Shown here: in pieces, positions 33,223 to 47,592 of the stretch
Numbering within the stretch: position 1 is the stretch's first letter
Layout: each line of letters starts with the position of its first letter
Source: an uncultured bacterium
Lineage (GTDB): Bacteria; Gemmatimonadota; Gemmatimonadetes; Gemmatimonadales; Gemmatimonadaceae
Assembly: GCA_963978095.1 (NCBI GenBank)
Contig: CAXBQP010000001.1
Span: 89,095 to 153,094 of the forward strand
Reading direction: 5' to 3'
Length of the DNA stretch: 64,000 nucleotides
Notes under the pieces: model-generated
Databases searched by the model: none
The model's input: the letters and a program-made list of their open reading frames with translations, nothing else
Told to the model about the DNA's origin: nothing
Position numbers and translations under genes: made by a program

Positions 33223-33372
33223 TGGAGGTCGCGTGTCGGGCGGGATGAGGAATAGTACACCGTCGTCGCGTTTCCGGGTGCAAGCGACGACGAACCATCG
33301 GCACCCCGGGAGTGTTGCACTCCCCCCTGTCCGCGAGGGCGCGTTCGCGGAATCACTTTGCTCGGAGGAGCT

Positions 33373-33507
33373 ATGTCGCAGAACAACGGTATGACGGAAG
33401 AGGACGCAAAAGCGTTCCACGGCTACTTCATCATGATGATGAGCGTGTTCGTGGGTACGGCGATTGCGGCGCATCTGCTGATGTGGAGCTGGCGGCCCTG
33501 GTTCTGA
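33373..33507 (+). CDS. pufB: Light-harvesting 1 beta polypeptide
   Basis: Absent from the ORF track because it is under 60 aa. My translation is MSQNNGMTEEDAKAFHGYFIMMMSVFVGTAIAAHLLMWSWRPWF. It has the conserved 'AxxFH' and 'A(A)H..xWxWRPW' BChl-His motifs. GGAGGAG lies 3 nt upstream. Confidence 0.9.
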   Translation: MSQNNGMTEEDAKAFHGYFIMMMSVFVGTAIAAHLLMWSWRPWF

Positions 33508-33546
33508 TCGCCACTTCATCAATCACCTGAGACCTGAGGTTTCATT

Positions 33547-33711
33547 ATGCATCGAATTTGGGTTGGACTCGACCCGCGCGTGGTCCTGTCCTGCGTCGGA
33601 TCATTCCTGACGATCACGGTTCTCGTGATGCACCTGTTTGCATTCAAGGCGCTGAACTGGCCGGGATCGATTTCGCAGAAGTATCCGGCTTACCACGCGC
33701 AGGCCAAGTAA
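33547..33711 (+). CDS. pufA: Light-harvesting alpha polypeptide, copy 1
   Basis: Absent from the ORF track. My translation is MHRIWVGLDPRVVLSCVGSFLTITVLVMHLFAFKALNWPGSISQKYPAYHAQAK. It has the 'MHRIW..DPR' N-terminus and His29 in the TM helix. GAGG lies upstream. Confidence 0.85.
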   Translation: MHRIWVGLDPRVVLSCVGSFLTITVLVMHLFAFKALNWPGSISQKYPAYHAQAK

Positions 33712-33812
33712 GCCGACCGTGACGCGATGGAACTTGGAGAGAGTCTCGGGGGGTCCGAGACGGGCCACCCGGCCTCTCCGGTTCCTCCGCCAAACAATCA
33801 GAGGAGACAAGC

Positions 33813-34028
33813 ATGCATCGCATTTGGCTGGCCTTTGACCCGCGCAGGGTTCTGATCGCGCTGTTCGGGTTCCTCGGAGTGCTGGCGTTCCTGATCCACT
33901 TCATCCTGCTCAGCTCGAGCCGGTACTCGTGGATCGAGAATGGGACTCTCACGCCGGAGCAGCTCAAGCCGGCGGCGAGCGCTCCAGCAGCGACGGCCGA
34001 AATGGCCCCGTTGCCGCCCGGGCGGTAA
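33813..34028 (+). CDS. pufA: Light-harvesting alpha polypeptide, copy 2, with Ala/Pro-rich C-terminal tail
   Basis: The 71-aa protein '[44 protein letters not shown]..' has His29. Its tail is '[19 protein letters not shown]'. AGAGGAG lies upstream. Confidence 0.85.
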
Positions 34029-34991: not shown

Positions 34992-36233
34992 ATGCTTGAA
35001 TACCAGAACCTCTTTACCCGCGTCCAGGTTCGGACGGCGCCCGACCCGGGCTTGCCCATCGACGAAGGCCTTGGCATGCGCCTCGGCAAGGGCGGTTACG
35101 GCGTGCTCGGCTATTGGCTCGGCAAGCTCGGCGACGCCCAGCTTGGCCCGATCTATCTCGGCCTCGAAGGAGCCGCCTCGCTGTTCTTCGGCTTTCTTGC
35201 CATCGAGATCATCGGACTGAACATGTGGCGCTCCGTGGGGTGGAGCCCCGTCCAGTTCGTCCGCCAGCTGCCCTGGCTCGCCCTCGAGCCGCCATCGCCG
35301 GAGTACGGCCTGCATATTCCACCGCTCGACAAAGGCGGGTGGTATCTCATTGCCGGCTTCTTCCTGACCGCGGCCATCTTCTTGTGGTGGATGCGCACCT
35401 ACAAGCGCGCCAAGGCCCTGAAGATGGGGATGCATCTCTGCTGGGCGTTCGGTTCGGCCATCTTCCTGTACATGGCCTTCTTCCTGCAGCCTGTCCTCGT
35501 CGGGTCGTACAGCGAGATGGTCCCATTCGGGCTCTTCCCCCATCTGGACTGGACGTCGGCCTTCTCGATCCGCTACGGGAACCTGTATTACAATCCGTTT
35601 CACGCGCTGTCGATCGTCTTCCTGTATGGATCGGCGCTGCTGTGGGCGATGCACGGCGCCACCATTCTGGCGGTCAGTCGCTACGGCGGTGAACGCGAGA
35701 TCGAGCAGATCACGGATCGTGGTACAGCCGCGGAGCGCTCACAGCTGTTCTGGCGCTGGTGCATGGGGTGGAACGCCACCATGGAATCGATTCACCGTTG
35801 GGCGTGGTGGTTCGCCGTGCTGACCACCTTCACGGGAGGGATTGGCATCCTGCTGACGGGAACGGTCGTTGACAACTGGTATCTCTGGGCCGTCAAGCAT
35901 CATGTCGCACCCGAGTATCCCAAGCAGAACACGCTCAGTGCACAGGAACTCGAACGCCTCCGCGGACGGTACGCCGGACGCATGAAGGGCGGGTATCCCA
36001 GCTACACTGTTCCGCAGACGGCGACCCCGATGGATGCACCGGCCGCACCAGGCACGCCGTCCGTCGTCGGCGCGCCGACCGCATCGCCGAACGCATCGCC
36101 GAGCATCGCGACACCAGCGGCAGCACCAGCCGCTGCGGCTCCTGCCGCGCAGTTGCCGGCATCGAAGCCTGCCGGCGGCGCTCCTGCTCCGAACCCCGCA
36201 GCGCCGGCGACACCGGCCGGGAGGAAGCCGTGA
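34992..36233 (+). CDS. pufM: Photosynthetic reaction centre M subunit with ~100-aa C-terminal extension
   Basis: The canonical core runs to '..[17 protein letters not shown]' (about aa 310). The same ORF then continues through an Ala/Pro-rich tail to aa 413. Its stop overlaps the pufC start. Confidence 0.9.
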
Positions 36234-37354
36234 TGAAGCGCTCGTTCCTGATGCCACTGCGCAACAGTGCGCTGCTGGTGGCCACCCTCGCACTCGGCGC
36301 GTGTCGGTTCATCGACAACCGTGAGACTTCCCAACGCGGATATCGCGGGACGGGCATGCAGGTGGTGTATCCCTACAAGGCGACGGCGCACGCGTTCCAG
36401 GCAACGCGGTTGCCCAGCGTGCCGCCACCAGCCGGCGAGTCCCCGCCGGGTCCGCTGCCGTGGAAGAACGTCCAGGTGCTCAACGACGTGAGCGTCGCGG
36501 AGTTCAACCGGACGATGATCTCCATGGCGGAATGGGTCGCCGGGCCTGGCAACTGCCAGTACTGCCACAACGTGGCCAACTTCGCCTCGGATACCGCGAA
36601 CAACGGCAAACCGCTCTACACCAAGCTGGTGGCGCGTCGCATGTTGCAGATGACCCGCAACATCAACGGCAACTGGCAGGCCCACGTCGCGAACACCGGA
36701 GTCACCTGCTACACCTGTCACCGTGGGAAGCCGCTGCCGAACGGCCTGTGGTTCTACAGCAGCGAAACCCAGTACCTGCGGCATTATCTCGATTCCACGG
36801 GCGCACGCGTGGTCTCGCACCAGATCTCGCCGAGCAACGCCAACCGGTCGAGCGTCAAGCAAACCGAGTGGACGTACGCCCTGATGATCTCGCAGGCTCG
36901 CTCGCTTGGGGTGAACTGCACGTACTGCCACAACACGCGTCAGTTCGCCAGCTGGGAACAAGCCCCGCCGCAGCGCGTCAAGGCGTATGACGGCATTCAG
37001 ATGTTGCGCGATGTCAATCGCAACTACTTGGCACCGTTGCAGCCGGTGTTTCCCGCGGTGCGGCTCGGTGCCAAGGGTGATGCCCCCAAGGCCCAGTGCT
37101 TGACCTGTCACAACGGGGTCTACAAGCCCCTGTACGGGGCTCAGATGGTCAAGAACTACCCCGCGCTATGGGGACGTGACGCGTGGGCCGGGGTACCGTT
37201 CCCGGGCATCCACGGCCCGGCCAAACCGGACAGCGGCAAGAAGGTGGCCTCCGGGCAAACGACGGTCACGGGCCCCGTCACCGTCCCCACTCCGATGGCG
37301 AAGGCGACGGCACCGGTCGCAAAGCCGACCCGGAGTGTACAGGAGCACCAGTAA
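36233..37354 (+). CDS. pufC: Reaction-centre tetraheme cytochrome c subunit (lipoprotein-type N-terminus)
   Basis: Four CxxCH motifs (CQYCH, CYTCH, CTYCH, CLTCH). Lipobox-like 'LALGAC'. GTG 36230 and ATG 36233 are in the same frame. Confidence 0.9.
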   Translation: MKRSFLMPLRNSALLVATLALGACRFIDNRETSQRGYRGTGMQVVYPYKATAHAFQATRLPSVPPPAGESPPGPLPWKNVQVLNDVSVAEFNRTMISMAEWVAGPGNCQYCHNVANFASDTANNGKPLYTKLVARRMLQMTRNINGNWQAHVANTGVTCYTCHRGKPLPNGLWFYSSETQYLRHYLDSTGARVVSHQISPSNANRSSVKQTEWTYALMISQARSLGVNCTYCHNTRQFASWEQAPPQRVKAYDGIQMLRDVNRNYLAPLQPVFPAVRLGAKGDAPKAQCLTCHNGVYKPLYGAQMVKNYPALWGRDAWAGVPFPGIHGPAKPDSGKKVASGQTTVTGPVTVPTPMAKATAPVAKPTRSVQEHQ

Positions 37355-37388
37355 CAACTGATTCACGCGACACCTGCCTTGAGTCGGC

Positions 37389-37430
37389 AAGAAAGCGGGG
37401 GTTCCCGGTACCGGGAACCCCCGCTTTCTT
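37389..37430. terminator. Bidirectional intrinsic terminator: perfect 20-bp-arm palindrome
   Basis: AAGAAAGCGGGGGTTCCCGG-TA-CCGGGAACCCCCGCTTTCTT has a T-rich run after the stem on both strands. It lies between convergent pufC and puhC. Confidence 0.8.
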
Positions 37431-37483
37431 GTGGCGACGCGATCGCGGTGAACGATCTGCTGACGGAGTCGCTCGGAAAAGCG

Positions 37484-37966
37484 TTACTTCCCGGCGAGCA
37501 GCAGGACGCGGAACGACTCGACTTGGGTCGGACCGAATGAGCTGATGGACACGCGTTCGCCGGTGGAGGGATCGTCCAACGTCATGCGCCCATTTTCCCA
37601 TTGCGTGAGGATAAAGGGCTCCGACGGCTCGACATGTGCAGCCCGACGCGACCGCGCGAGACTCCGGATGGCACCGCGCAAGAACTGATCACTGTTCGGC
37701 GGCACCTGGAAGACGTTCCGGTGCGCGATCGCGTCATAGACGTCAATGCCACCATTCGTGGCGTCACTGAACACCAAGGACCGTGACCCGACCATGGGCC
37801 CGTCGGGCTCATCGTACGCGCCTCGCCCGAACCGCGTGGCGGAGATGGCGAACCAAAGCGTTGCAGCGACGATCACGAGTGCCACGACCAAGAATGGACG
37901 CGGGGGCGTCAGGTCCTGCATGGCCGACTGCTGCCCTGGCTCGCGTTCGAAATGAATCTGCGTCAT
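37484..37966 (-). CDS. puhC: Photosynthetic complex assembly protein PuhC
   Basis: 160 aa with a single N-terminal TM ('PFLVVALVIVAATLWFAI'). ATGA overlap with the puhB stop. It sits in the canonical position after puhB. Confidence 0.75.
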   Translation of the reverse strand: MTQIHFEREPGQQSAMQDLTPPRPFLVVALVIVAATLWFAISATRFGRGAYDEPDGPMVGSRSLVFSDATNGGIDVYDAIAHRNVFQVPPNSDQFLRGAIRSLARSRRAAHVEPSEPFILTQWENGRMTLDDPSTGERVSISSFGPTQVESFRVLLLAGK

Positions 37967-38616
37967 ACGGTAACCGCGGAGAACCCGGTGATGCTGCCCG
38001 CGGCAGCGCCAGACGCTGGTGCAGCAGCCTCCGGTGCCGCTCCCTCGACGGCCAACGCGGCCGTCCGGAGGATCGCGCCGACGGCTGCGGCATCCCGCAG
38101 TCCGCGCAGGACCGGCTGCGGATTCTTGAGGTGCCAGGCTCTCACATGCGGCCACAGAATCAGCCACGCGAGTCGATCCGCCGATTGGACTTCGATCGCG
38201 ATTTGCCCGGTCCCATCGCGGAACATGCGCGTCGCAGCCCCCCGGATCGACCGGAGTGGAAGATTCAGGGTCATCGGCAGTACGATGCCGATGCGCATCA
38301 CCACGCGACGATCCGTGATGATGTACCGCGTCGTCCGCGCGCAAGCCACCGCCAGCACGAACGCGATGAGGATGGCGAACGCGGCGCTCCCGAGTTGCAG
38401 GCCCAGCATCTCTCGGAACTCGGCACTGCCGAGCGCCGATCGGGTGTTGAACGCCCACGCCCCGATCACCACGGCGAAATAGACGGTCAGCGCCCACACG
38501 TGGAACGCGTGCCGCGCGAGCGCCGCTCGATCAGGCTGTTCCTCCCACAGCACCCGCTCCCCGACCGGAAGAGGTTCAGGGGCGCCAGGGATAAACCTCC
38601 GCTCGTCCACGACCAT
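37963..38616 (-). CDS. puhB: Photosynthetic complex assembly protein PuhB
   Basis: 217 aa containing 'RYIITDRRVVMRIGI' and 'WPHVR'. ATGA overlap with the stop of the puhA C-terminal ORF. Confidence 0.75.
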   Translation of the reverse strand: MVVDERRFIPGAPEPLPVGERVLWEEQPDRAALARHAFHVWALTVYFAVVIGAWAFNTRSALGSAEFREMLGLQLGSAAFAILIAFVLAVACARTTRYIITDRRVVMRIGIVLPMTLNLPLRSIRGAATRMFRDGTGQIAIEVQSADRLAWLILWPHVRAWHLKNPQPVLRGLRDAAAVGAILRTAALAVEGAAPEAAAPASGAAAGSITGFSAVTV

Positions 38617-39161
38617 CAGAGCAGCGGTTGCGAGCGATCCGGCGTGGCGTACAGGTGACCGCCACCGTAGTACGCGCAAATCTTGTCTTCCTCCAAAAGG
38701 GTAATCTCGGTGCGGCTCTTCGTCCCCGGCACCTCGGAGAACTGGGCCGCCGTGATCGCCTTGACGCGCACATGATCCAACCCGAACAACCCCAAGTTCG
38801 GCCACGCCACGAACGTCACCGGGAGCAGAACGTGTCGTCCGCCCGTCGCGAGCGTCACCTCGTAATACCGGACCTGCGGCTCCGACCGATCGACCCACAG
38901 ATCGGAGATCGTACCGGCGACGACGCCGTCACAGGCGCGTACCGGCAATCCACGCGGATCCGGATCCCCTTCGGCGATCGAGAAATCCGTGGCCACCTGC
39001 ATCGGCACGATCTTCGGCTTGCCATGGGCGGTCAGATCCGGCACATCCGCTCGCTGTGCCCAGGAGGCAGGGCCCACCCCGTCGATCATCGGATTGCCCG
39101 TCGGAACGAACGGCGATCCATTGAACCCGTCGACGGGTTCCATTTTCAAATCCTGACTCAT
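38616..39161 (-). CDS. puhA: Reaction-centre H subunit, cytoplasmic domain, encoded as a separate ORF
   Basis: '[88 protein letters not shown]' is collinear with the C-terminal ~70% of canonical PuhA. ATG 39161 overlaps the upstream ORF stop (ATGA). GGGAGG lies upstream. Confidence 0.85.
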
Positions 39162-39364
39162 GCGTGTCCGCCTCCCTGCGTATGATCGGGGTGAATGAAC
39201 GTCTTCGGTTCCGGGACCGTGGGCCACCCTTCACGGGGACCCTGGGGCGACTCGAGCGGATATCCCTCGCGCTTGTCCTCACGGCGGAGATACACGATCA
39301 ACCCGAAGAAAAAGAGCCAGAAACAGTACAGCGCGATTTGCGCAGCGTCGAAATAGTGTGTCAT
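39158..39364 (-). CDS. puhA: Reaction-centre H subunit, N-terminal transmembrane segment, encoded as a separate ORF
   Basis: The 68-aa protein '[38 protein letters not shown]..' is the canonical PuhA TM helix with the [11 protein letters not shown] motif. It ends at a TGA in a different frame from the cytoplasmic-domain ORF. Confidence 0.85.
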
Positions 39365-39394
39365 GCCTCCTCCTGAGAATGCGCCGAAGCCCGG

Positions 39395-40846
39395 TCAGGC
39401 TGGAAGATCAGCGAGACCAAACTCTTGTTGCCGGCGAATCGCGCCGGCGCGAACCATCGAAACCAGTGGCCCCAACGCCACCAACGTGGCGAAGAGGGTG
39501 ACAATCTCCATCGCATACACGACGCTGTACGGCATCGCGGGATTGCGGAGCACGGCACTGACACGCCCCTCGGCGATCATGCGGGCCAACTCATCGCGGA
39601 TCGCTCCCGAGCTGGCCAGGGCGAGCCCTTCGGTCGTCGCGAACACCGCGCCCCAGGCGCCGAGCGCGATACCATGCTGCGTCGAGTCGCGAAGCCCCAT
39701 CGCCGCACTCAGCGTGCCCACGCCGAACAATCCCTCGCCGGTGCCGATCAGGAAGGTGCCGCACTGGAACAGCATGGCGGAATGCAGCGGCGCGGCGAGG
39801 ATGACGCAGGCGAACGCCACAATGCCGGTAGCAACGCCCAGCGCTGCGAGGCGGATCGGGTCCAATCCCCGTTCCAGCAAGAGTGCGGCAACCATGAAGG
39901 CGAAAATGCCGCCGACGGCCATGACACCCGTCAAACCCGTCGTTTGCGACACGGAAAAGCCGAGGATCTCGCCGCCGTAGGGTTCGAGAAGTACATCCTG
40001 CATGTTGAAGGCGAAAAAGCCGCATCCCACGGCCACGAGCAGACGGACCGCGGCACCACCCTCCGCGAAGGTCCGCCACGCCTCACGGAAGAGCGGACGG
40101 CGCTCTCCCTTCTGGTACGGCGTCACTCCCCGTACGCGCGCCTCCTGCCGCCACATGGAATAGGTGTTCACGACGACCGTGAACACGGCCGTCGCCTGGA
40201 TGACCTGGATGAGTTTGCCTTCCGTGAATCCCTGCAGCGCAACGCCGAGGACCAGAGAACTCAACACGGTCCCGATCAGCAGCATCAGATACATCAGCGC
40301 GATGATGCGGGGCCGTTTGGCCTCCGGTGCAATGTCGCTCGCCAGCGCGAGTCCCGCGGTCTGAATGGTATGCGCACCTGCGCCCACGAGAAAGAATGCC
40401 ACGCCGCTGCCCACATAGCCGATGAAACGGGGGCCCCAGTGTTGATCACCGCCCAGAACGATCAGGGCGAACGGCATGATGGTCAGCCCTGCGAACTGCA
40501 TCATGGATCCAGCCCAGACGAACGGCACGCGCTTCCAGCCCAGCACCGACCGGTGCGTGTCGGAGCGAAAGCCGATCAGTGCCCGGAATGGCGCGACCAG
40601 CAACGGAATCGCGATCATGACCGAGACGATGGTCGCACTGAGCTTCAACTCGAGGATCATCACGCGATTCAGCGTGCCGAAGAACAGCGTCTGCACCATG
40701 CCGCACGTCAACTGAAAAAGGCTGAGGCGAAGCAGACGCGACAGCGGCATCTCCGGCGTCGCGATATCCGCGAAAGGCCGCCACTTGGAAACAATCCCCA
40801 AGGTGAAGCGCTGAAGCCGCAAGAGCAGTGCGCGCAAGAAGCTCAT
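39395..40846 (-). CDS. lhaA: LH1 assembly factor LhaA (PucC/BCD family MFS protein)
   Basis: 'LRLSLFQLTCGMVQTLFFGTLNRVMILEL' and 'FRSDTHRSVLGWKRVPF' are PucC-family signatures. ATG 40846 lies 1 nt after the acsF stop. 40864 is an alternative start. Confidence 0.8.
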   Translation of the reverse strand: MSFLRALLLRLQRFTLGIVSKWRPFADIATPEMPLSRLLRLSLFQLTCGMVQTLFFGTLNRVMILELKLSATIVSVMIAIPLLVAPFRALIGFRSDTHRSVLGWKRVPFVWAGSMMQFAGLTIMPFALIVLGGDQHWGPRFIGYVGSGVAFFLVGAGAHTIQTAGLALASDIAPEAKRPRIIALMYLMLLIGTVLSSLVLGVALQGFTEGKLIQVIQATAVFTVVVNTYSMWRQEARVRGVTPYQKGERRPLFREAWRTFAEGGAAVRLLVAVGCGFFAFNMQDVLLEPYGGEILGFSVSQTTGLTGVMAVGGIFAFMVAALLLERGLDPIRLAALGVATGIVAFACVILAAPLHSAMLFQCGTFLIGTGEGLFGVGTLSAAMGLRDSTQHGIALGAWGAVFATTEGLALASSGAIRDELARMIAEGRVSAVLRNPAMPYSVVYAMEIVTLFATLVALGPLVSMVRAGAIRRQQEFGLADLPA

Positions 40847-40847
40847 C

Positions 40848-41915
40848 TCACCAGACCGGTTCAAGACGGAAGTTCACAGGCAGTTCCGCGTGCTTGGCCG
40901 GCAAGAGGAACATGCGGGCGAAAATCACGGCATTGGACGCCTTCGCCACTGCCCCACGCAACACACCACCGAGGCCGCCCGTCTTCTCCGCCTCGGCGAT
41001 AGCCAGCGTGTTCTGGTACATGGACTCCATCAAGGCCCACAACTTGGGATTGTCCACGTCGATCGTCACCGGGAAGACTTGGCGGCTGATCTCATTGGTC
41101 AAGGCGATCACGCGACGATCGAAATCGTTGACATCGAATCCCAACTGCTTGAAGAAATCCGCGCGCAGATGGTCACGGACATACATCGTCGCAAACACCG
41201 CCAAGAGGAAGAAGCGGATCCACAGCTTGTTGCCGCCGCGCAGGAACTGCGGGTTGGCACGCATCAGAATGGCGAACGCCTCACCATGCCGGAACTCATC
41301 ATGGCACCAGTTCTCGAACCACTTGAAGATCGGGTGGAACCGGAACTCGGGATGGGCTTCGAGCTGCCGATAGATCGTGATGTAGCGGGCGTATCCGATC
41401 TTCTCGGAGAGATAGGTGGCGTAATAGATGTACTTCGGCTTGAAGTACGTGTACTTCTTGGCCCTGGTCAGGAAGCTCAGATCCACCGCGACGTTGAAAT
41501 CATTCAACGTATGGTTGATGAATCCGGCGTGCCGCCCTTCGTCGCGGCTCATGAAACCGAACAACTCGCGGATATCCTTGTTCTTCACCCGCTTCTTGAT
41601 CTCCGCGTACAGGATGCAGCCCGAGAACTCCGCCGTGACCGAGCTCGTCAAGAACTCGATGAAGGAGCGCTGCAGCTCGAGTGGCCATCCGGTCCAATCC
41701 AAGTCGAAGTCGGCGTTGCGCTTGAAGTGGTCCTTGTTGGGATCGCGCCGGAACTCATCCACCATTGCATCCCACATCTCACGCATCGACTCCACGTTCA
41801 AGCGGTCGAGTTCGTCGAAATCCGTGGTGTAGAAGCGCGGATTCAGCGCGGCATCCTCACGCGCGGCCTTCGTCGTCTCGTTGATGGGCGCTGCCGTCGT
41901 CGCGTCGTACATCAT
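40848..41915 (-). CDS. acsF: Aerobic Mg-protoporphyrin IX monomethyl ester oxidative cyclase
   Basis: Di-iron motifs 'SRDEGRHAGF' and 'CHDEFRHGEAF'. 'FYTTDF' N-terminus. 355 aa. Confidence 0.95.
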   Translation of the reverse strand: MMYDATTAAPINETTKAAREDAALNPRFYTTDFDELDRLNVESMREMWDAMVDEFRRDPNKDHFKRNADFDLDWTGWPLELQRSFIEFLTSSVTAEFSGCILYAEIKKRVKNKDIRELFGFMSRDEGRHAGFINHTLNDFNVAVDLSFLTRAKKYTYFKPKYIYYATYLSEKIGYARYITIYRQLEAHPEFRFHPIFKWFENWCHDEFRHGEAFAILMRANPQFLRGGNKLWIRFFLLAVFATMYVRDHLRADFFKQLGFDVNDFDRRVIALTNEISRQVFPVTIDVDNPKLWALMESMYQNTLAIAEAEKTGGLGGVLRGAVAKASNAVIFARMFLLPAKHAELPVNFRLEPVW

Positions 41916-42254: not shown

Positions 42255-43046
42255 TCATGCGCCCACTCCGAGGACCACCTCGTCATCATCCGACGACGTC
42301 GTCCGCACGAGTTCAAGCGCTTGTGAGATGTAGAAGGCGCTCTGCACGCGGGTCGTGCGAGCGGGGGTCCAGTCGCCGAGCGTCGGCGACGTCGCGATTG
42401 CCTCGTACAGCAATCGCCGGCGCAACGGCTCGATGGCCGGCGCGCGGTTCGTGTGCTCGGTATGCGGCACAAGCCGTCCCACGGCGTGCATCAGCTCGAG
42501 CAACGGCGTACTCGGGGCGTACGTCGCCACGATCGAACCGCGGGTCCGCGCCGCCAGCGCGGATACGGCATGCATGACGTCCTCGAGCCGATAGTGGATC
42601 AGCGAATCCATCGCAAACACGTGATCGAACTCGCCGAACTCCGGGGACAACATGTCACCGGCGGAAAACTCGATGCGGCCCGACAGAGGCTCCTCGGCCA
42701 TGCGCGCCAGGCCGACCTCCACCGCCGACGGCGCCAGATCGATCGCCACCACGTCCGCGCCGCGGCGCGCGAGCTCGATCGATGCCGTGCCCGTGCCGCA
42801 CCCGGCATCGAGAACGCGCTTCCCGGTCAGGTCGGCGGGTAACCACGAGAGCAACGTGTCGCGCATGTTCGCGCGTCCCGCGCGAACCGTCGCCCGGATC
42901 CTGCTCACCGGAGCATCCGAGGTCAGCGCCTTCCATCCATCGGAGGCCGTCCGGTCGAAATACTCCGTCAGCCACGACCGCCGTTCGGCATACGTGGAGG
43001 GAATCGATTCGCCGGCGCCCCGCACCGCGTGACTGGATGATGTCAC
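42255..43046 (-). CDS. bchM: Mg-protoporphyrin IX methyltransferase
   Basis: 'KRVLDAGCGTGTASIELARRGADVVAIDL' SAM fold. GTG 43046 lies 2 nt after the bchL stop. The longer track ORF overlaps bchL. Confidence 0.9.
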   Translation of the reverse strand: MTSSSHAVRGAGESIPSTYAERRSWLTEYFDRTASDGWKALTSDAPVSRIRATVRAGRANMRDTLLSWLPADLTGKRVLDAGCGTGTASIELARRGADVVAIDLAPSAVEVGLARMAEEPLSGRIEFSAGDMLSPEFGEFDHVFAMDSLIHYRLEDVMHAVSALAARTRGSIVATYAPSTPLLELMHAVGRLVPHTEHTNRAPAIEPLRRRLLYEAIATSPTLGDWTPARTTRVQSAFYISQALELVRTTSSDDDEVVLGVGA

Positions 43047-43048
43047 GG

Positions 43049-47592
<4,544 letters not shown>

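Follow-up and report, generated by a model that had tools for sequence, protein, structure and literature searches.

Does the reaction-center (RC) H subunit of this organism, which is encoded in two short open reading frames (ORFs), represent a genuine two-chain protein or a gene that has been broken by error or by decay? Among the purple bacteria of our comparison this core RC subunit is one chain, with PuhA as the product of one ORF of about 255-260 aa (e.g., Rhodobacter sphaeroides 1AIG_H), and in a phylum with horizontally acquired photosynthesis it consists of two. We analyzed the window, i.e., the whole 64,000-nucleotide stretch of DNA from an uncultured member of the Gemmatimonadaceae, in which a preliminary description made from the letters alone had noticed two ORFs in place of a single puhA; it had taken them for a fixed gene fission rather than decay, and had pointed to a cryo-EM structure from Gemmatimonas phototrophica with separate RC-Ht and RC-Hc chains.

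That structure exists and is as described there. Qian et al. 2022 describe the H subunit of G. phototrophica as consisting of two fragments, Ht of ~7.7 kDa and Hc of ~19.9 kDa, encoded by genes named puhA1 (204 bp) and puhA2 (546 bp) that lie upstream of lhaA, with both polypeptides confirmed by mass spectrometry and cryo-EM density (PMC8849296). The same work reports that puhA had been overlooked by the NCBI pipeline in G. phototrophica, that a six-residue segment of proteobacterial H is absent from its H subunit, that Ht touches LH1-alpha5 within a cardiolipin-rich lipid patch, and that Hc lies on the cytoplasmic face, clamped to LH1 by RC-U (PMC8849296). Gardiner et al. 2025 (PMC12817894) present the solved complex of G. 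groenlandica (9H19/9H22), with Ht and Hc again separate by cryo-EM, and term the split puhA Gemmatimonadota-specific, noting it in Gemmatimonas and Pseudogemmatithrix in a comparison of three genomes; the split is dated there to soon after horizontal transfer, before the genera diverged. Assembly in the new host is the benefit suggested for the split (PMC8849296, PMC12817894). In a limited literature collection we found no paper on puhA1/puhA2 of phototrophs beyond these two, and neither junction forms nor the word “overlap” were found in the available portion of the more recent one (PMC12817894). The split puhA of the window is thus correctly identified but an already published trait, of which it provides one more species-level example. 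What we add is the recurrence of the split in the window and each of the 79 related genomes with both halves, the constant proximity of stop and start across junctions that have been rewritten, with ATGA as a minority form, and in-frame TAG junction variants in more divergent lineages.

The two ORFs and the elements associated with them are arranged on the minus strand as follows:

39158..39364, minus strand: puhA1 (RC-Ht), 68 aa, predicted 7.92 kDa, with an ATG start and a TGA stop (from the ORF listing)
about 39287-39343, minus strand: single transmembrane (TM) helix of puhA1
39254-39286, minus strand: 11-residue motif of puhA1
38616..39161, minus strand: puhA2 (RC-Hc), 181 aa, predicted 19.50 kDa, the cytoplasmic part
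39158..39161, minus strand: puhA1/puhA2 stop/start overlap ATGA, read directly from the sequence
39171..39176, minus strand: GGGAGG, a Shine-Dalgarno (SD)-like sequence for puhA2, 9 nt 5' of its ATG
39366..39374, minus strand: AGGAGGAGG, the SD sequence for puhA1, within the 30-nt gap after lhaA

Ht ends in ...GGGHA and is closed by the TGA at 39160-39158, and the predicted N terminus of Hc is (M)SQDLK; the ATG of puhA2 occupies 39161-39159, and puhA2 runs to 38616 in the Ht frame +2, i.e., one base behind. The GGGAGG element sits within codons of the Gly-rich tail of Ht. These observations confirm the two ORFs, the frame change between them, the ATGA overlap, and the preceding GGGAGG as the preliminary description had given them. 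No continuous ORF for TM helix, linker, and PRC barrel is present at this locus: TGA closes the Ht frame, and Hc lies in a different one. The two adjacent same-strand ORFs carry the TM helix with the N-terminal part of the PRCH domain and then the C-terminal part of PRCH with the PRC barrel, Ht corresponding to positions 3-67 of the 134 in the Pfam PRCH model for the N-terminal region of the RC H chain (E 1e-22) and Hc to positions 81-134 of 134, followed by the PRC barrel (Pfam). Since one PRCH model is divided between both ORFs, the break falls in the linker after the TM helix, which was the position proposed from the letters alone and with which alignment to single-chain H agrees.

Single-chain PuhA (1DXR_H, 3WMM_H, 1AIG_H) contains the same two structural modules in identical order: residues 1-61 of Ht align to 5-72 of Thermochromatium tepidum 3WMM_H, and residues 3-181 of Hc align to 86-258 of Blastochloris viridis 1DXR_H. 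The difference is confined to the connection between them, where the segment x-D-G-x-x-V-x-A-P of single-chain PuhA is absent from the split proteins and is replaced by the Ht tail and the Hc N terminus, making the linker ~4 residues shorter overall.

Comparison with solved structures places both ORFs with the separate chains. Ht is matched best, over essentially its whole length, by three RC-Ht chains, 9H22_H, 9H19_H, and 7O0U_H1 (E 1e-31 to 1e-32), and Hc, end to end, by the RC-Hc chains 7O0U_H2 (E 5e-79) and 9H22_K/9H19_K (E from 1e-73); the single-chain H subunits of purple bacteria rank below all separate RC-Ht/RC-Hc chains among these structures. Compared with their G. phototrophica counterparts, Ht is 71.6% and Hc 67.8% identical. 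As in G. phototrophica AP64 (7O0U-7O0X), two adjacent ORFs lie beside lhaA with an identical break point in the linker, and their sizes are close (67 and 181 aa in AP64, 68 and 181 aa in the window). The closest protein to the Hc of the window in a large protein collection is 86% identical, and the closest genome locus in a scan of species-representative genomes is 80% identical in Hc, with no exact match in either collection. We conclude with high confidence that the pair is puhA1/puhA2 of the type known from phototrophic Gemmatimonadota, a fixed fission of an ancestral puhA in the linker after the TM helix. In this particular organism the products would be two separate chains, judging from homologs that are 68-72% identical: puhA1 would give a membrane anchor, RC-Ht, of ~7.9 kDa and puhA2 a cytoplasmic RC-Hc of ~19.5 kDa, and the two would join the L/M core as separate chains, at the place that the single H chain takes in purple bacteria.

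The surroundings of the pair match this assignment in gene content and order, with three further genes adjoining it directly:

39395..40864, minus strand: lhaA, a PucC-family MFS assembly factor (Pfam PUCC, E 1.5e-127), directly upstream of puhA1
37963..38616, minus strand: puhB, 217 aa, with a bacterial PH domain (Pfam bPH_2)
37484..37966, minus strand: probable puhC, 160 aa, from its ORF, junction sequence, and gene order

The start codon of puhB shares a base with the stop of puhA2 in a TGATG (38614-38618), and the probable puhC, with its ATG at 37966, is joined to the end of puhB by an ATGA overlap. The position of the probable puhC corresponds to that of the PuhC-family gene after puhB in two other contigs (L087 and L089); it gave no Pfam match when scanned as a longer 337-aa ORF. 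The minus-strand order is bchB, bchH, bchM, a 109-aa ORF, acsF, lhaA, puhA1, puhA2, puhB, and probable puhC, and convergent with it on the plus strand are pufB, pufA1, pufA2, pufL, pufM, and pufC. The split RC-H genes therefore lie between lhaA and puhB, in company with a pufA1/pufA2 pair and a C-terminally extended PufM (413 aa in the window vs. 367 aa in 7O0U, from G. phototrophica AP64, and 392 aa in 9H19); both the pairing of pufA genes and the PufM extension are known from the Gemmatimonas photosystem (PMC12817894). The window resembles G. groenlandica (9H19/9H22) and Pseudogemmatithrix spongiicola in its split puhA and its pufA1/pufA2 pair, but differs from Pgt. spongiicola, whose cluster has a large insert, in that its puf and puh operons are contiguous (PMC12817894). 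The GC content of 63-69% is compatible with Gemmatimonadota. lhaA, puhA1, puhA2, puhB, and puhC, in this order, probably form one operon; a scan found no promoter-like sites at 37000-41200 and terminator-like sites at background rate, which does not contradict a single operon and proves nothing.

We surveyed the 80 closest loci from the scan of species-representative genomes, one of which is cut upstream of Hc, leaving 79 usable loci that carry both halves and, with the window, 80 junctions to count. All 80 surveyed loci are labeled Gemmatimonadota, Gemmatimonadaceae, or Gemmatimonas, except one metagenome-assembled genome labeled Candidatus Kuenenia, which is probably mis-binned. H is split in 80/80, Hc is always in the Ht frame +2, and a stop/start overlap of 1 or 4 nt is present in every case, in one of five junction forms:

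TGATG, 62/80
TAATG, 8/80
GTGA, 7/80
ATGA, 2/80 (the window and L054)
TAGTG, 1/80 (L001, the nearest relative)

Whether the ATGA junction itself is conserved, as the preliminary description had asked, thus has a divided answer: a stop/start overlap is universal in this set, and the exact ATGA is found in only 2/80, against 62/80 for TGATG. A common geometry underlies all of these forms, in that the Hc start codon begins on the third base of an Ht-frame codon in 80/80. That Ht-frame codon is a stop in 71 of the 80; the remaining 9 have a sense codon there, followed directly by a stop built from the TG of the start and an A. The window belongs to the latter type; compared with G. phototrophica, its Ht has one additional C-terminal residue, resulting in ATGA, whereas Ht of the clade's common TGATG form ends in His. 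The junctions of the window and of L001 are of equal length and differ by substitutions only (CAC GCA TGA vs. CAC TAG TGG), so the ATGA of the window is obtainable from the common form without an indel. It is a rare, derived, and lineage-specific variant of a conserved, putative coupling junction.

An SD core, defined as GGAG, GAGG, or AGGA with a spacer of 4-13 nt, precedes the Hc start in 70/80 (modal spacer 10 nt), compared with a background of 7.4% at random positions inside Hc genes, and the remaining 10 of the 80 have G-rich runs. Recurrence of the arrangement on this scale is well beyond what chance would give. Across loci the motif is encoded by the Gly/Glu-rich Ht tail. Stop/start proximity and an embedded SD are therefore kept through several rewritings of the junction sequence, and the retention of the overlap in all 80 despite this repeated remodeling speaks for selection on proximity. 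Purifying selection clearly constrains both halves: in pairwise comparisons of the window with nine relatives, Ht has a dN/dS of 0.05-0.15 and Hc one of 0.13-0.30, with dS near saturation. Together with the split in 80/80, these values bear out the earlier reading of the locus as a fixed fission and not as decay.

The anatomy of the junction, in which ATGA at 39161-39158 follows a GGGAGG at 39176-39171 inside the upstream ORF, points to translational coupling of Hc to Ht. Given the overlap and an SD within the final codons of puhA1, a ribosome that completes Ht would be in place to start Hc; ribosomes terminating at the Ht stop may re-initiate, or new ones may be recruited, at the adjacent Hc start, which would tie Hc synthesis to Ht synthesis and favor a roughly 1:1 output. 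The pair resembles coupled operon pairs with ATGA or TGATG junctions in its 4- or 1-nt overlap, in the SD within the upstream ORF, and in having partners in one complex, and it departs from the usual coupled pairs in that the cistrons of the window are halves of a gene that is single elsewhere. A hairpin occluding the SD, as a means of enforcing coupling, was considered and dropped, since no stable RNA structure was found in the 120 nt around the junction (fold z = +1.29, i.e., less structured than shuffled controls).

The data are equally compatible with independent initiation of puhA2 from its own SD, with no dependence on puhA1 and with the overlap reflecting compact operon packing. Nearly every Hc start is preceded by a strong SD at a spacing of 9-10 nt, the weakly structured junction probably leaves that SD accessible without an upstream ribosome, and the overlaps at puhA2/puhB and puhB/puhC suggest that packing is a general habit of this operon. 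The overlap is, moreover, not obligatory, because divergent relatives (see below) have TAGATG and TAG-GGC-ATG junctions in which stop and start do not overlap. Against independent initiation stand the 1- or 4-nt overlap in 80/80 main-clade sequences despite junction remodeling and a 1:1 subunit stoichiometry, the classic setting for translational coupling. On balance we regard independent initiation as possible but rather doubtful, and a coupled Hc start as the preferred reading.

A programmed -1 frameshift or a stop-codon bypass that also yields a full-length, single-chain H is very improbable. Hc does lie in the -1 frame relative to Ht, the Hc frame of the window is open for 23 codons 5' of its ATG, and an SD-like element is present about 10 nt upstream, as it is at the dnaX frameshift site, which carries such an element upstream. 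The last Ht codons of the window, however, contain no slippery heptamer, and in 25 of the 80 loci a stop in the Hc frame 3-6 codons before the Hc start leaves almost no room for a shift site. The masses and cryo-EM models of the homologs, moreover, are those of separate Ht and Hc chains (PMC8849296).

A sequencing or assembly indel that broke a normal single-chain puhA is next to impossible: a single-base error would give just such a frame change, but the identical split and relative frame recur in 79 independent assemblies, the split is also present in further metagenome contigs, homologs are two-chain in three cryo-EM models and by mass spectrometry, and a proper ATG with an SD stands exactly at the break. 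In addition, the 120 closest database homologs of Hc are ~180 aa long, with the exception of fragments and one upstream-extended ORF call; P0063 (209 aa), considered as a fusion, was rejected as an upstream-extended ORF call of this kind. Equally negligible is the decay of puhA to a pseudogene, for which a disrupted frame would ordinarily speak, in a lineage losing phototrophy, given dN/dS values of 0.05-0.30 that show constraint on both halves, the full length of both relative to solved homologs, the presence of start codons and SD sequences for each, and the intact state of the neighboring photosynthesis genes examined. As puhA was missed by annotation in G. phototrophica, genome scans should expect two short ORFs at this position, not a pseudogene.

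We further searched representatives of 50%-identity protein clusters and retrieved the contigs of those that match Hc only. The representatives are mostly single-chain H proteins of 250-290 aa, and several are Hc-only proteins that share 47-57% identity with the Hc of the window and lie outside the tight clade of the 80 Gemmatimonadota loci. The Hc-only proteins on contigs L081-L086 each lie directly downstream of an Ht-type ORF, with the following junctions:

L081: TAGATG, in frame and adjacent
L082 and L083: TAG GGC ATG, in frame, with a 3-nt spacer
L084: ATGA, with GGGAGGAG upstream
L085: ATGA, following a 129-aa Ht whose tail of ~70 residues is acidic and rich in Pro and Thr
L086: TGATG

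In L082 (contig JBBQRH010000022.1 of GCA_038215035.1) the gene order (bchL, bchM, small ORF, acsF, lhaA, puhA1, puhA2, puhB) matches that of the window, and the C-terminal His of Ht and the MSDL at the start of Hc are as in the main clade; this suggests that the L082 junction may be the ancestral junction of the main clade with a 4-nt spacer difference. A frameshifting indel as the original event, an idea that arose from the one frame shared by 80/80, was dropped because the L081 and L082 junctions are in frame. Alignment of concatenated Ht and Hc with single-chain proteins places the break at the identical linker position in all split lineages, between a P-x-P-K-x-[FY] motif and a K-A-x-P...G-A-P-L-x-P-T-G-N-P segment.

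In a neighbor-joining tree built from 216 columns of the Hc region in 80 sequences, with no support values, 17 main-clade sequences form a tight group with the L081 protein as sister, and the other split forms are scattered among single-chain H on a star-like base, which favors neither a single origin nor several. Fission of the H subunit may on this evidence be older, wider, or more recurrent than published, an idea that we put forward tentatively and consider unlikely. If some of the divergent split lineages lie outside Gemmatimonadota or split independently, fission would be a recurrent event at the H linker, and the in-frame TAG forms could then retain the original nonsense-mutation state. 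Among other candidates from the protein searches, P0132 and P0234 are uninformative as Hc-only proteins, as both are at contig ends, and P0121 (218 aa), considered as a re-fused Gemmatimonadota form, proved to be a genuine single-chain H, its linker short and its gene order of the proteobacterial type.

Stop/start overlaps recur at three further junctions of the gene cluster, each read from the sequence of the window:

38614-38618, puhA2/puhB junction, overlap TGATG
37963-37966, puhB/puhC junction, overlap ATGA
36230-36235, pufM/pufC junction, overlap GTGATG

Such overlap seems to be a general habit of this gene cluster and nothing peculiar to puhA1/puhA2, the Ht (transmembrane-helix) and Hc (cytoplasmic) halves of the split reaction-centre H gene.

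Two other loci bear on the H subunit, one from a divergent split-H lineage (L085) and one with single-chain H (L087):

L085, 351-740, Ht, 129 aa
L087, 2834-3490, puhA, single-chain H of only 218 aa

In L085, the conserved part of Ht is followed by an inserted low-complexity, acidic, Pro/Thr-rich tail of ~70 residues, located before the ATGA junction. The single-chain H of L087 is missing about 40 linker residues, so that this region can also lose long segments while the gene stays unsplit; gene order at this locus is of the proteobacterial type (bchM, lhaA, puhA, puhB, puhC, acsF, puhE). A Gemmatimonadota-type puhA1/puhA2 locus is also found in a metagenome-assembled genome labelled Candidatus Kuenenia stuttgartiensis (L063, CALQGY020000004.1), with a TGATG junction between the two genes and 62% identity to the window in Hc. 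The assignment of this locus to a Kuenenia bin is almost certainly a mistake in the public database.

On the plus strand of the window, pufB comes first and is followed by two pufA-like genes (33358-34028), with pufM further downstream:

33358-33507, plus strand, pufB, 49 aa
33547-33711, plus strand, pufA1, pufA-like, 54 aa
33813-34028, plus strand, pufA2, pufA-like, 71 aa
34992-36233, plus strand, pufM, 413 aa, tail from about 36060

The pufA1/pufA2 pair is tied to the double-ring antenna of Gemmatimonas by Gardiner et al. 2025 (PMC12817894). A Pro/Ala-rich C-terminal tail extends PufM past its conserved core, and the length of this tail differs between species: the window product has 413 aa, compared with 367 aa for the RC-M of G. 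phototrophica and 392 aa for that of G. groenlandica; the purple bacterial subunit measures about 305-330 aa. A longer product, listed as 505 aa, is encoded in a second divergent split-H lineage, L082:

L082 (NCBI GCA_038215035.1, contig JBBQRH010000022.1), 8362-8576, pufM, gene running off the locus

Both Photo_RC and OmpA-family Pfam matches are present in this product, which, as predicted from its sequence, would be a reaction-centre M subunit joined to a periplasmic domain of the peptidoglycan-binding type; no fusion of M with an OmpA-family domain was found in the reaction-centre structures or literature compared here.

Two further minus-strand reading frames lie upstream of acsF:

42255-43466, minus strand, bchM, longest ORF, 403 aa
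41915-42244, minus strand, 109-aa ORF, sequence MNTSLLAGLGTVVVLGAWML..., flanked by bchM and acsF

The methyltransferase domains begin near residue 193 of the bchM frame, and its 5' part shares coordinates with a second minus-strand ORF (43049-44065). The true start is probably internal, giving a product of about 230-250 aa as in L082, and the length of the 403-aa ORF is therefore no anomaly. Judged by coordinates alone, the acsF ATG at 41915 meets the stop of the 109-aa ORF. A 108-aa ORF, with no Pfam match, occupies the equivalent position in L082. The window ORF might encode a protein that assists the oxygen-dependent cyclase in the manner of BciE.
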